Positions 49,741 to 53,812 of a stretch of 64,000 nt of DNA are shown here, piece by piece. Position numbers and translations under genes: made by a program. The DNA is from Shigella phage Sf24: the sequence record MF327008, one strand, 5' to 3'. Positions within the stretch are counted from its first letter, which is position 1, and every line of letters starts with the position of its first letter. The notes beneath the pieces are model-generated. The model was given only the letters and a program-made list of their open reading frames with translations. It had not been told where the DNA came from and did not search any database.

Positions 49741-49775
49741 TGTATAGTACCACAGAGGAACGGTCTTGTAAACAA
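49741..49775 (-). promoter_or_regulatory. T4-type early promoter in repeated cassette
   Basis: GTTTAC ... TGGTACTATACAACTATCAAC. Confidence 0.5.
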
Positions 49776-50090
49776 CTAAAAGAAACTTCTTTCACAATTT
49801 TTTCCACTGAACCAAGCGCTCACTGCTTTCTTAGTCTCAGGAGCAGTGTTATCCATAAACCATTCAAAAGCAGCCTTTTTATGATTCTGGAGGGCTTCTC
49901 GGGCTTTAATCTGCTCACGGTCTATTAACACTAACATATGAGCCTTTCTTGTCACCAAGGGCTTCTTATGATTTTTTGAATACTCCCAATCATTTGTCCA
50001 TCGCATCGTTGTTGCGAACTGAAATACTGCTTCTTTAATTTTAGTTTCGTAAATTTCACGAGCCTTTGAGTATAACATCATTACCTCCAT
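49776..50090 (-). CDS. hypothetical protein
   Basis: 104-aa ORF. Confidence 0.5.
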   Translation of the reverse strand: MEVMMLYSKAREIYETKIKEAVFQFATTMRWTNDWEYSKNHKKPLVTRKAHMLVLIDREQIKAREALQNHKKAAFEWFMDNTAPETKKAVSAWFSGKNCERSFF

Positions 50091-50179
50091 TTACCAGTTT
50101 AATTCTAGTCATCTTTTTGATGGCAGTCCATATAATCTATTTCTGAACTGCCTTTTTATCTTAGAAGGCCTCTTATGAA

Positions 50180-51148
50180 TTATTTCAGAAGAGTAACCTC
50201 AGCGATTTCTTCCCAACCGTTTTTGTCGGTCATAATAAAGTCAGCAAGATAAAGAGCAGTACGCAGTGAAACATTGCGTAAACGATTAACATTGACTTTC
50301 ATCCATGATAATGCTTTATAAGTTTCTTCATCAGAAAGACCGCGCTTTTGCATCATGTCAGTTGAAAGAATAACATCTTCAACCCTGACCATAATTTCTT
50401 CATTAGTGTGAACACCCAAATCCAAATAAACTGAGCGGGACACTAATGCTTGTAAGTGTGGGGCAAGTTTAGTACCACGGTCTAATTCGCGGTCAATGTC
50501 AACGTTTGTGATAAAAACAATCGTTCCTTTAAATTCAAACTCACGCTCAATGCCTTTTTCTTCTAAGTAAGAAGATGCAGTGCTCCAGCAGACTTTACGG
50601 GTCTCTCCAGTGTCCAGAGCAGCTTTTAGAAGATTAAGAATGTCCATATCAGAGAAAACATCCACATCATCAATCAAAAGGACAGAATTCTCTTCACGAT
50701 TATTCCAAAGCTGTTCATAAAGACCAATACCAGAGATTTTACCATTAATGCTTTTATACTCAATGTATCCAATATCATTTGCTTTATTTAAAGCTTTATC
50801 TAAAGAATACGTTTTACCAATACCTGCTGCTCCCGAGATAATTAATGAACGAATGTTTCCGTTAATAATACCATTCGTCATCATTCCCATAACATTAAAT
50901 CTTTTATTAATGCGGGTTTTCATATCTTCATACGATTCTTTAACTTCTTCAACTTTTACACCATCATATGAAATGTCTGATTTGTAAACCCAAACACCGC
51001 GACGTTTACCGTCAATTTCAACAAAAACTTTACCATCTCCTTGTGCATCTACCGGAGCATTATCCGGGAACCATTCGCCTAAGAGCTCAAAAGTTCCAGA
51101 GATTTCTTTACCGAAGTAGATACCCTTATTGATAGTTACAGTTTTCAT
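50180..51148 (-). CDS. AAA+/P-loop ATPase
   Basis: Walker A GAAGIGKT, Walker B VLLIDDVD; start MKTVTINKG with GGAGAA RBS. Confidence 0.65.
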   Translation of the reverse strand: MKTVTINKGIYFGKEISGTFELLGEWFPDNAPVDAQGDGKVFVEIDGKRRGVWVYKSDISYDGVKVEEVKESYEDMKTRINKRFNVMGMMTNGIINGNIRSLIISGAAGIGKTYSLDKALNKANDIGYIEYKSINGKISGIGLYEQLWNNREENSVLLIDDVDVFSDMDILNLLKAALDTGETRKVCWSTASSYLEEKGIEREFEFKGTIVFITNVDIDRELDRGTKLAPHLQALVSRSVYLDLGVHTNEEIMVRVEDVILSTDMMQKRGLSDEETYKALSWMKVNVNRLRNVSLRTALYLADFIMTDKNGWEEIAEVTLLK

Positions 51149-51180
51149 TTTATTCTCCAAATCCGTATCAGTTGATAGTT

Positions 51181-51216
51181 GTATAGTACCACAAAGCTTT
51201 ATGCTTGTAAACAGTT
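51181..51216 (-). promoter_or_regulatory. T4-type early promoter in repeated cassette
   Basis: GTTTAC ... TGGTACTATAC. Confidence 0.5.
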
Positions 51217-51243
51217 TTGTGAAAAATTTTTGAAATAAAAAAA

Positions 51244-51261
51244 AGGGAGCCCGAAGGCTCC
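51244..51261 (-). terminator. intrinsic terminator
   Basis: GGGAGCC-CGAA-GGCTCCC hairpin with U-run on minus strand. Confidence 0.65.
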
Positions 51262-51264
51262 CTA

Positions 51265-52278
51265 TCATTTATAATAACTTCGGTGGTTTTCAAGATAGAC
51301 CTTCTCAAGGAAGTCATCCCAAAAACTCATGTCTACTTTTTGCTGCATACCGTTCTTAGAAGCTTCAGTAGATGCTGCTTCTACTTGATCGACCACATCT
51401 TCCAAAAACTCTTGAACCGTTTTAAATGGATGCTTACCCAACTTCACGTCGAGAATAAAGGGAGCATCTTTGAGTGGATAAATCAAGTCGCCAGTTTTGT
51501 AAATTTCCAATAGTTGAAGTCCACCACGACAAGCATGACTCAGAGCTTTCCAATCAATACCTTCATTAGCTTCGGCTTTACGAGCACGTTCACCATATTC
51601 AGCATCTAATTTGTTCAGTGACTGCTTAAGCTCAATAAGAGAAAGCGTTGTCTGATATTTACGACCCAATACAGTGTAGAACGTTTGTGGGCCTGTTTTC
51701 TTATGATTATGGAACACCCATTCACAGAATTCGTTTTCTGGAAGACGATGCTTAATATCTTCAACTTTAGTGCGACGCTGCTTAATAGAACCATCTTCTT
51801 GGTAATCAACCCATTGCTCAGGGATTTGATTAACTACTTTCAATACATCGCGTAATGCAGCCAAACGAGAACCCTTGACACCATATTTAGAAGCTTGCTT
51901 GCGAACATATCCTAAATAGGATTTCATGTTAGTCGTATAAAAACGAGAACGGTTGTCTTGAATAAACTTCCACACATCAGGCAAATCAGATTTAACCACT
52001 AGTTCAGGTGGAGTGTGAAGCATATCCAATGCTACAGTTTCACCATCTGCTGCTAATTTAAAGAAATATTTAAGACTGTATAGTTCATGGTCAATATCAT
52101 CTTTAGTGTTTTTAGATGATGTGTTATTAGTGTTTTTACTCATGTGCTCTTTGACATTTCCGATAAGAATATCACGAGCAGGAGGAACAAAAATTTCTTT
52201 AAAATCTACATCAGATTCTGGGGTAGAAGTTCCATAAAGATGACTACCAAAATAGCTTTTCATTACTGTTTTCATCAT
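51265..52278 (-). CDS. nucleotidyltransferase-fold protein
   Basis: GSHLYGTSTPESDVD matches pol-beta-type GS...DxD signature. Confidence 0.55.
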   Translation of the reverse strand: MMKTVMKSYFGSHLYGTSTPESDVDFKEIFVPPARDILIGNVKEHMSKNTNNTSSKNTKDDIDHELYSLKYFFKLAADGETVALDMLHTPPELVVKSDLPDVWKFIQDNRSRFYTTNMKSYLGYVRKQASKYGVKGSRLAALRDVLKVVNQIPEQWVDYQEDGSIKQRRTKVEDIKHRLPENEFCEWVFHNHKKTGPQTFYTVLGRKYQTTLSLIELKQSLNKLDAEYGERARKAEANEGIDWKALSHACRGGLQLLEIYKTGDLIYPLKDAPFILDVKLGKHPFKTVQEFLEDVVDQVEAASTEASKNGMQQKVDMSFWDDFLEKVYLENHRSYYK

Positions 52279-52736
52279 TCAGCCTTATATTCAATAACAG
52301 GACATACTTTAGCTTTACGAGCTTTTAAAAATTCAACGATAATCGATTTCTTGGGTTGAATAGGAGGTAAACCTTTATACGCCCTATCAATATTTTCTAT
52401 GTGTAAAGCATAATCCTTTTTCCATTTATAATCTTTATATTTTTCATGCAAATGTGCAGGAATAACAAATGAACCGATAATAAGTAAAACAACCAAAAGC
52501 GCAAGTATAAATGCTGATGGAATAAGAGTCCATAAACTACCAAAAATAAGCCATTTCTGCATGATTTCTGCGCAGATAATAGTTAGACCTGCGAGTATAG
52601 TACATCCGAAAAAAGAAACGAAAAATGTAGGAATAACAACAGACCAAAAATATGCACACAGTGTCTTAGGTCGTTTCCATTCATCATTAAACATTTTGAA
52701 TAATTTATAGTGCCAAGAGTTTTCATTAATAATCAT
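52275..52736 (-). CDS. membrane protein co-transcribed with the nucleotidyltransferase
   Basis: three predicted TM helices; stop overlaps downstream start. Confidence 0.55.
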   Translation of the reverse strand: MIINENSWHYKLFKMFNDEWKRPKTLCAYFWSVVIPTFFVSFFGCTILAGLTIICAEIMQKWLIFGSLWTLIPSAFILALLVVLLIIGSFVIPAHLHEKYKDYKWKKDYALHIENIDRAYKGLPPIQPKKSIIVEFLKARKAKVCPVIEYKAE

Positions 52737-52738
52737 AA

Positions 52739-53260
52739 TTATCCTTTCATTGAAGGTGTAACAGTTGTTAAATACTTAATCATAGCTTCAGCTTCTGATT
52801 TTGATAATGAAATTTCTCCATTGTTTTGACGAATAGAAATAAAATCCGGATGACGGTCACCACCAGCTTTTAAAATACACATATAAGTATCAGTTTCATC
52901 TTCAATATCTGAAATGATTGAAGCAGTTCCGCATGAATGTGGTTTTTGATAAATCAATGCAGCTTTTCTTCCGCCATTTGACTGTTCATAAACTTTTAAT
53001 ACATCAAACAAATCACTTCTTTTATCAATAGCTAAAATGTTATTTTCATCTTCAATGTTAAATCCTTCGGATACTTCATAAAGTGTCACCCATAAATCGC
53101 CAATATCAATAACAGCGTTCACTTTTCCATGACTTTCAAGAGCATGACAAATTTTCTTGATTTCGTCATAACTCATTTTAATAATATCATCTCCTTGACT
53201 AAGGAAGATGTCATTTTTAAATTCAACACGAATTAAACCGCTTCCACTTGAAATAAACAT
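52739..53260 (-). CDS. hypothetical protein, paralog pair member
   Basis: C-terminal ISLSKSEAEAMIKYLTTVTPSM resembles next ORF. Confidence 0.55.
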   Translation of the reverse strand: MFISSGSGLIRVEFKNDIFLSQGDDIIKMSYDEIKKICHALESHGKVNAVIDIGDLWVTLYEVSEGFNIEDENNILAIDKRSDLFDVLKVYEQSNGGRKAALIYQKPHSCGTASIISDIEDETDTYMCILKAGGDRHPDFISIRQNNGEISLSKSEAEAMIKYLTTVTPSMKG

Positions 53261-53266
53261 ATTTCC

Positions 53267-53812
53267 TCACTTTGAAATCATAGTTGGAATAACAGAATCA
53301 AGATAAATCTTTAGCGCAATAGCTTCGTCTTTGTTTAATGTAATGATATGTGATCGAAAATCGTCAATTTGACGAATAGATACTACATCTCCCTCTTCAT
53401 AGCATTTTGAAACATTTAAAATAGTTTCATCATTCTGATTACAGGAGTTAGTAATAATAGCATTACATTTTTTAAACCATTTTAAACTATGTTTTCTTTC
53501 ATTAGAATAATAAAAATATTTAATCTTATCTATAAAACTATCCCAATGGATAACTGATAAGCATATTGACTCGCTTTCAATATTAAATCCTGGGCATGAA
53601 GAATAAAAATGAATTTTATGCTCATCATTAATGCTTACAATTTTATCAGTATAAGGATTTTCAATTTTGGTTAAATGAATGATTTCACTAGGCGTAAAAT
53701 ACAGCATATCGTCTTCTTGTGTCAAACGATACATATTATTTACTTTTTCTATAGCCAATTCACCAAAAAGTGAACTAACTTCTAATACTAATCGTTTCGC
53801 CGCTACCGTCAT
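53267..53812 (-). CDS. hypothetical protein, paralog pair member
   Basis: C-terminal ITLNKDEAIALKIYLDSVIPTM. Confidence 0.55.
   Translation of the reverse strand: MTVAAKRLVLEVSSLFGELAIEKVNNMYRLTQEDDMLYFTPSEIIHLTKIENPYTDKIVSINDEHKIHFYSSCPGFNIESESICLSVIHWDSFIDKIKYFYYSNERKHSLKWFKKCNAIITNSCNQNDETILNVSKCYEEGDVVSIRQIDDFRSHIITLNKDEAIALKIYLDSVIPTMISK

Follow-up and report, generated by a model that had tools for sequence, protein, structure and literature searches.

Sequence analysis places NrdC.11 of Shigella phage Sf24 in a divergent, long branch of the RlaP family and points to a probable role in RNA-end repair separate from its membrane-protein and AAA+ ATPase neighbours

The locus described here lies on a 64,000-nt stretch of DNA of Shigella phage Sf24 (record MF327008; this whole stretch is referred to as the window, and all coordinates are window positions), and comprises neighbouring genes for a nucleotidyltransferase (NTase), a small membrane protein and an AAA+ ATPase. 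The analysis favours, with moderate confidence, a reading in which these are three accessory genes, distinct from one another, that lie in the plastic nrdC-tk region and form no module, and in which the NTase, NrdC.11, would add nucleotides during RNA-end repair together with a polynucleotide kinase-phosphatase (Pnkp) and an RNA ligase. The RNA-repair reading rests on the family membership of NrdC.11, on the conservation of its catalytic residues and on the genes that neighbour its orthologs. Annotated relatives and T4 itself identify the NTase as nrdC.11 (97.6% identity to the T4 protein) and the ATPase as nrdC.10, an assignment that had been correctly guessed in a preliminary description of this DNA. 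Both genes were listed in 2006 (PMC1524935), where nrdC.11 is given as a nucleotidyltransferase of COG3541 and nrdC.10 is described as an AAA ATPase, and the locus is one of ordinary T4 genes that have already been catalogued and annotated. Approximately 3.3 kb around it share 97–98% identity with many genomes of Tequatrovirus (KRT47, RB18 and T4 relatives). A tblastn search of phage records (n = 50,697) detected homologs of the NTase in 1516, of the ATPase in 1310 and of the membrane protein in 865 records, and the three genes are therefore real and not chance open reading frames (ORFs).

The nrdC.11 gene (51265–52278, minus strand; phrog_388) encodes a protein of 337 aa which matches Pfam PF10127 (RlaP, 'RNA repair pathway DNA polymerase beta family') with 44.6 bits, against a gathering threshold of 23 (E 1.8e-11), and its close homologs are all precomputed as PF10127. 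It belongs to a large family (2911 clusters at 90% identity; 3417 at 50% identity), which includes hundreds of full-length homologs of 310–350 aa. The pol-beta-type signature on which the NTase had originally been recognised is present as GSHLYGTSTPESDVD (pattern hG[GS]...DxD, residues 11–25; 52204–52248, minus strand). In an alignment of 38 diverse homologs (33–54% identity), residues G11, S12, D23, D25, N57, D63, Y124, Y132, K244, H248, R251 and K279 were invariant and D61, D85, K131 and K135 nearly so; the motif residues are thus conserved, whereas their divergence among homologs had been named in the preliminary description as the outcome that would speak against an NTase. The C-terminal part of the protein contains a conserved block of its own, D242-W-K244-x-x-S-H248-A-x-R251.

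The AlphaFold2 (AF2) model of NrdC.11 (pLDDT 93.3) consists of an NTase core (residues 1–96), helices, a beta insertion at approximately 155–209 and further helices (214–336), the last of which spans residues 317–336. PfRlaP, the comparator among canonical proteins, has an NTase domain at the N-terminus and a helical one at the C-terminus, and its final helix packs back against the NTase domain. Inspection of this model for the third catalytic acidic residue, a check that had been proposed earlier, identified D63 as the probable third carboxylate, because it is placed at the start of strand 62–68 and can be aligned with an Asp of canonical RlaP; D85 sits in a helix. When the NrdC.11 profile was compared with one canonical RlaP using hhalign, the N-terminal core alone was aligned (GS, DxD and D63, opposite GSRAWG...SDFD). 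Judged by its sequence, NrdC.11 belongs to the RlaP family (PF10127, COG3541) within the Pol-beta superfamily, as a divergent, 'long' type: it has in common with PfRlaP and PaRlaP a GS...DxD...D core and, as modelled, an NTase domain followed by helical domains, but has a length of ~337 aa compared with ~250–290 aa for the canonical proteins, and possesses its own beta insertion (~155–209) and a C-terminal half bearing DWKAxSHAxR.

The genomic context of bacterial orthologs was assessed in 80 bacterial and archaeal loci carrying full-length NrdC.11-type genes (30–53% identity; scan seeded with a subset of nine sequences), by clustering the ORFs up to four genes away from the NTase and verifying cluster representatives by Pfam. 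The most frequent neighbour was a canonical full-length RlaP, found directly downstream on the same strand in 21 loci, followed by RtcB (10), HD phosphohydrolases (7), Pnkp (6), Ro60 (TROVE + vWA; 5) and a T4 Rnl1-type RNA ligase (4). RtcB, Pnkp, Ro60 or Rnl1 occurred within four ORFs on either side in 18 of the 80 loci, a number that increases to 32 when canonical RlaP is also counted. Neither the membrane protein nor nrdC.10 had a homolog near the NTase in any of the 80. In three planctomycete loci (L099, L108 and L115), the NrdC.11-type NTase is encoded third in a same-strand cluster, after a Pnkp of ~307 aa and an Rnl1-type ligase. The Pnkp of this cluster is homologous to T4 PseT (34% identity and E 5e-19 for the phosphatase domain; E 6e-5 for the kinase domain), with the domain order swapped, and the ligase is homologous to T4 RnlA (27% identity over 231 residues, E 3e-14), while the NTase of L099 scores 41.6 bits against PF10127. 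Homologs of PseT, RnlA and NrdC.11 are therefore united in a single planctomycete cluster, although the corresponding T4 genes are dispersed. As a separate observation, tandems of an NrdC.11-type gene and canonical RlaP (for example in L068, L087, L094 and L100) are often located beside Ro60 and RtcB.

The biochemical activity of the family is known from two Pseudomonas enzymes, PfRlaP and PaRlaP, which add one or two nucleoside monophosphates to an RNA 3'-OH, accept any nucleoside triphosphate (NTP) and also dATP, prefer Mn2+ and are inactive on DNA and protein (Carruthers et al. 2025, bioRxiv, December 2025, 10.64898/2025.12.29.696909). According to the same report, these enzymes favour, on a cleaved tRNA, the 3' end that belongs to the 5' half, and they improve the aminoacylation of a repaired tRNA from which one nucleotide had been lost; the T4 ligases require 3'-OH/5'-P ends, as supplied by the RlaP product; and T4 NrdC.11 is assigned to cluster 5 of a PF10127 similarity network. 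Its authors propose that RlaP serves as an antidote to 'smart' ribotoxins, of which RloC is one, and phage RlaP had previously been predicted by the Aravind group to replace nucleotides lost to RloC-type nucleases ahead of ligation (PMC7824862). Modification of nucleic acid ends, which the preliminary description had offered as one option among several, is hence the function best supported by RlaP membership and by the RNA-repair neighbours of the orthologs.

In the proposed sequence of events, a host RloC-type anticodon nuclease would cut and trim the anticodon loop of a tRNA, after which the T4 polynucleotide kinase-phosphatase PseT would first generate 3'-OH and 5'-P ends. NrdC.11 would then extend the 3'-OH by one or two nucleotides, the likeliest substrate being the 5' half of the trimmed tRNA, and sealing of the restored tRNA would fall to a 5'-P RNA ligase, either RnlA or RnlB. 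The classic pathway, in which PseT (Pnkp) and RnlA (Rnl1) act against PrrC, has no need for nucleotide addition, and a role for NrdC.11 in it is putative. Should NrdC.11 indeed restore nucleotides excised by RloC, it would constitute a missing third enzyme of classic T4 tRNA repair, beside PseT and RnlA, and a clear move in the phage–host arms race over tRNA. A repair role for NrdC.11 has already been proposed (Burroughs and Aravind, PMC7824862; Carruthers et al. 2025, 10.64898/2025.12.29.696909); what is added here is that T-even phages carry the divergent long RlaP subtype only, that bacterial orthologs of this subtype reside in operons with PseT and RnlA homologs or beside canonical RlaP, and that the membrane protein and the AAA+ ATPase fall outside the NrdC.11 system.

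Several observations weigh against the proposed repair role. The PF10127 match is limited to profile positions 23–142 of 249, i.e. the N-terminal half, and the C-terminal half and beta insertion of NrdC.11 are unlike canonical RlaP, so that its substrate or product could differ from that of RlaP. The 21 tandems with canonical RlaP further suggest, on the basis of gene order, that the two subtypes are non-redundant, the NrdC.11 type in bacteria often accompanying canonical RlaP rather than replacing it. Phage nrdC.11, unlike its orthologs that are linked to RtcB, Pnkp, Rnl1 and Ro60, does not lie beside ligase genes: no ligase, Pnkp or RtcB gene was found anywhere in the 64-kb window, T4 pseT, rnlA and rnlB are present but located 50–80 kb away from nrdC.11, and divergent phage NTase loci (L034 and L030) had no RNA-repair genes nearby. 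Furthermore, 3'-end addition is known from PfRlaP and PaRlaP only, and the same activity in T4-type NrdC.11, as well as an in vivo counter to nucleotide-excising nucleases, is inferred. Under laboratory conditions, the T4 block from nrdC.11 to mobD.3 is deletable (PMC9825161); this is in keeping with an accessory role in counter-defence but does not tell which role. Residual interest attaches to the long subtype, which is unlike canonical RlaP and, in bacteria, occurs paired with it; T4-like phages carry the NrdC.11 type only, and canonical RlaP was detected in 86 phage records, all of them jumbo phages.

An alternative, which we judge to be unlikely, is that RNA 3' ends are the target of the NTase but outside anticodon-loop repair, where it might rebuild trimmed tRNA 3'-CCA ends or tail other RNAs, of phage or host, and so alter their stability. 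In its favour, the bacterial RlaP enzymes, when given total RNA, label rRNAs as well as full-length tRNAs and display little NTP specificity (10.64898/2025.12.29.696909). T4-like phages encode tRNAs of their own, and the divergent C-terminal half, the beta insertion and the tandem with canonical RlaP would suggest a specialised substrate. However, the bacterial orthologs sit beside genes for ligases and end-healing enzymes; internal breaks call for such enzymes, whereas the rebuilding of 3' ends does not. Additionally, T4 tRNA maturation reportedly depends on the host CCA-adding enzyme, which counts against a 3'-CCA function.

The second gene, nrdC.10 (50180–51148, minus strand), encodes an ATPase of 322 aa that starts at the ATG at 51148, with a GGAG ribosome-binding site upstream. 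A 362-aa form of this ORF was discarded, since its extra length is a mechanical extension that crosses the promoter and terminator, and the start was corrected to 51148. The P-loop motifs that had been noted in it were confirmed (GAAGIGKT, residues 106–113; VLLIDDVD, residues 156–163) and correspond to a Walker A GAxGxGKT and a Walker B hhhhDD; these are joined by a sensor-1 motif (FITN, 212–215), an SRS Arg (237–239) and a sensor-2-like motif (LRNVSLRTAL, 290–299). The protein is composed of an N-terminal beta domain (residues ~1–62), a linker helix, the AAA+ core and a helical lid, and with five motifs and an alpha-beta-alpha core plus helical lid it has the full set of AAA+ features. In fold searches, no clade was clearly favoured (NorQ 12.5, CbbQ 12.3, MCM 11.9, sigma-54 activators ~11, DnaA/ORC/RFC/Hda ~10.3–10.5); matches to Pfam and NCBIfam were all below threshold, including one to Hda in NCBIfam, and searches of the PDB returned marginal Cdc6/mS29 P-loop matches only. 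NrdC.10 therefore has the full motif set in common with MoxR-type NorQ/CbbQ, DnaA/Hda, ORC/Cdc6 and RFC, and a Walker B 'DD' in common with DnaA/Hda, the Hda match being weak; among these comparators it alone bears a ~60-aa N-terminal beta domain, and its family is restricted to phages.

Homologs of NrdC.10 form 358 clusters, all from T4-like phages (infecting enterobacteria, Acinetobacter, Aeromonas or Vibrio), and the protein is 99–100% identical in hundreds of T-even genomes. Tblastn also detected it in jumbo phages, in copies that lack the N-terminal ~70 residues; the jumbo-phage homologs (H180–H184: Xanthomonas X1, fHe-Yen9-04, SP27, 7t3 and Atu_ph07) can be aligned from approximately residue 65–80 onwards, the beta domain being absent. 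From its sequence, NrdC.10 is a predicted catalytically intact AAA+ ATPase, independently transcribed and limited to T4-like and some jumbo phages.

The independent transcription of nrdC.10 is indicated by the region that separates it from the NTase gene, where a terminator and a fresh promoter had been predicted and were both found. An intrinsic terminator (51263–51244, minus strand) directly follows the NTase stop codon and consists of an 8-bp GC-rich stem with a UUCG loop, AGGGAGCC-UUCG-GGCUCCCU, followed by U8 (-16.4 kcal/mol, z = -3.4). It is succeeded by a T4-early-type sigma-70 promoter (51211–51183, minus strand) with TTTACA, a spacer of 17 nt and TACTAT preceded by an upstream TG; this promoter can be aligned with two further early promoters in the window, at 49772 and 53973. 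The terminator–promoter gap that separates nrdC.11 from nrdC.10 is an insertion hotspot in related genomes, accommodating small unrelated ORFs (L004, 8610–9466; L005, 9011–9556; L019, 9008–11298), and annotated homing endonucleases occupy it in some T4-like genomes (records H141, H143 and H146).

Cooperation between NrdC.11 and NrdC.10, for example through remodelling of an RNA–protein complex by the ATPase to give the NTase access, is considered improbable in the light of this arrangement. Synteny was examined in a set of 31 IMG/VR phage loci with the NTase, and in 20 of these the two genes are adjacent; moreover, both are early genes and both are widely conserved among T4-like phages, which counts in favour of cooperation. 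Conversely, they belong to separate transcription units, the space between them has received variable ORFs and homing endonucleases, nrdC.10 is missing from L010, L012 and L025, which retain the NTase, and is not nearby in Aeromonas-type loci, the ATPase occurs alone in some phages and in jumbo phages, and the bacterial NTase loci are devoid of it. An obligate partnership is thus not supported, given the separate unit, the variable inserts, the absences in the three loci and its absence from the bacterial loci.

Fold searches with NrdC.11 returned matches at the level of the fold alone, namely LinB, ANT(4'), kanamycin NTase, MNT and Tam41, in addition to HEPN-like helical domains. No cGAS/CD-NTase or CCA-adding enzyme was matched and no significant match to Cid1 was obtained, and the CD-NTase, CCA-adding and Cid1 assignments, against which a fold comparison had been advised, were ruled out on this basis. 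PDB sequence and profile searches with the NTase yielded nothing meaningful even at E <= 10, a PDB sequence search with canonical RlaP likewise gave no match, and the NCBIfam match to MntA was below threshold. The structural neighbours kanamycin NTase, ANT(4'), LinB and MNT, and the HEPN-like helical domains, would be compatible with nucleotidylation of a protein or small molecule, as performed by MNT antitoxins and aminoglycoside nucleotidyltransferases; this is nevertheless very unlikely, as Pfam assigns the NTase to RlaP, proteins are not labelled by bacterial RlaP and the neighbours of the orthologs are RNA-repair genes.

The third gene (52275–52736, minus strand; phrog_944) encodes a membrane protein of 153 aa and lies immediately upstream of nrdC.11, its TGA overlapping the NTase ATG in GAATGATGAAA (an ATGA overlap). 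While the overlapping stop and start that had been reported for this pair were upheld, the three transmembrane spans ascribed to the protein are doubtful: it has two hydrophobic blocks of ~33 residues (26–58 and 63–95), and its basic, predicted cytoplasmic termini at both ends favour an even number of spans, predicted to be two or possibly four. Among homologs with 26–95% identity, the invariant residues are S7-W8-H9, P23, L26-C27, Y29, K143 and C145-P146. These belong to an N-terminal S-W-H motif, a P-x-x-L-C-x-Y-F-W motif and a C-terminal K-x-C-P motif, and His9, Cys27 and Cys145 could conceivably constitute a cytoplasmic metal or redox site. A word-index search recovered 23 clusters of homologs, and tblastn extended these to 26% identity.

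The distribution of the membrane gene lends some probability to a functional link with the NTase, since 24 of the 31 phage loci, very divergent ones included, have a homolog upstream of the NTase gene. The two genes directly adjoin in Tequatro-, Mosig- and Dhaka-like phages. They are set apart by 0.5–1.7 kb of other genes in about a dozen loci, and a 136-aa ORF intervenes between them in L019. In the synteny comparison, no membrane gene was found at the NTase locus of T4, of L006 or of the Aeromonas-type loci. The most distant homologs (30% identity) are encoded in T4-like contigs with the order rI, 165-aa ORF, membrane gene, 94-aa ORF, RlaP, and because even these remain in T4-like contigs, the linkage reflects collinearity within one phage lineage. 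Additionally, the membrane protein retains 26–34% identity where the NTase retains 65–84%, which indicates much faster evolution. T4 itself (NC_000866, 56429–57208) carries the HNH homing endonuclease gene mobD in place of the membrane gene and the y05I-like gene (window 52275–53260), with the order nrdC.11, mobD, mobD.1 and nothing between. Here a homing-endonuclease site has undergone replacement in nature, and the NTase is left intact. The membrane protein is therefore regarded as a fast-evolving, variable neighbour, translationally coupled to the NTase in this phage but dispensable for it.

Very little weight is given to a variant of the repair role in which the long RlaP is functionally distinct from the canonical form, the tandem of the two in about a quarter of the bacterial loci being loosely comparable to split CC-adding and A-adding enzymes, and in which, in T-even-like phages, coupling to the conserved Cys/His-motif membrane protein tethers or regulates RNA-end repair at the membrane, or an oligonucleotide product disturbs a host membrane effector of the Hailong type. 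The NTase–membrane protein pair had initially been likened to nucleotide-signalling modules, a proposal that is not supported in view of RlaP membership, the dispensability of the membrane gene and its absence from the bacterial loci. The Hailong system (HalB/HalA) resembles the present locus in having an NTase gene beside a gene for a membrane protein, which in Hailong is a transmembrane ion channel, but the two have no sequence similarity; Hailong is a bacterial anti-phage defence with an obligatory HalA operon and a membrane effector, whereas the NrdC.11 locus is phage-encoded, its small membrane gene is dispensable and unconserved with the NTase family, and the orthologs are associated with RNA repair. 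A signalling or signal-masking pair, whether CBASS-like or Hailong-like (for instance, oligo-dA holding host HalA shut), is accordingly the most improbable reading, as the ATGA translational coupling and the upstream membrane gene in 24 of 31 T4-like loci and one very divergent lineage are outweighed by the lack of any cGAS/CD-NTase match, by a PADLOC scan that gave no match for any of the three proteins, by the retention of the NTase without the membrane gene in T4 and L006, by the intervening ORFs in many phages, by the presence of RNA-repair genes instead of the membrane gene in bacteria, and by the lack, in a protein of 153 aa, of a large cytoplasmic 'crown' of the HalA kind.

With regard to the layout of the locus, all genes are on the minus strand in the 5' to 3' order promoter, mobD.1-like, y05I-like, membrane gene, NTase, terminator, promoter and ATPase. 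The NTase transcription unit begins with a T4-early-type promoter (53973–53945) upstream of the mobD.1-like gene (53267–53812; 181 aa), which is followed by the y05I-like gene (52739–53260; 173 aa); both products match Pfam PF24449/PF24448. The two genes are tandem paralogs (PF24449 + PF24448, 'putative transcription factor'), and tblastn with either protein matched the same single gene in Dhaka-like phages. The three early promoters of the window (minus strand; within 51235–51140, 49800–49708 and 54000–53900) share a long block, GTTTACAAG...TGTGGTACTATACAACTATCAACTG, which reaches beyond the -10 element into the 5' untranslated region. The conservation of this block explains why one and the same spurious N-terminal stretch, 'LCGTIQLST', begins the mechanically extended ORFs of both nrdC.10 (362 aa) and nrdC.8 (195 aa). 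Among GenBank relatives of 50000–53300, many records label nrdC.4 to nrdC.11 'thioredoxin' and mobD.4 'molybdopterin-guanine dinucleotide biosynthesis protein MobD', both being artefacts that spread from the gene names, and one labels the NTase 'putative HNH homing endonuclease'.

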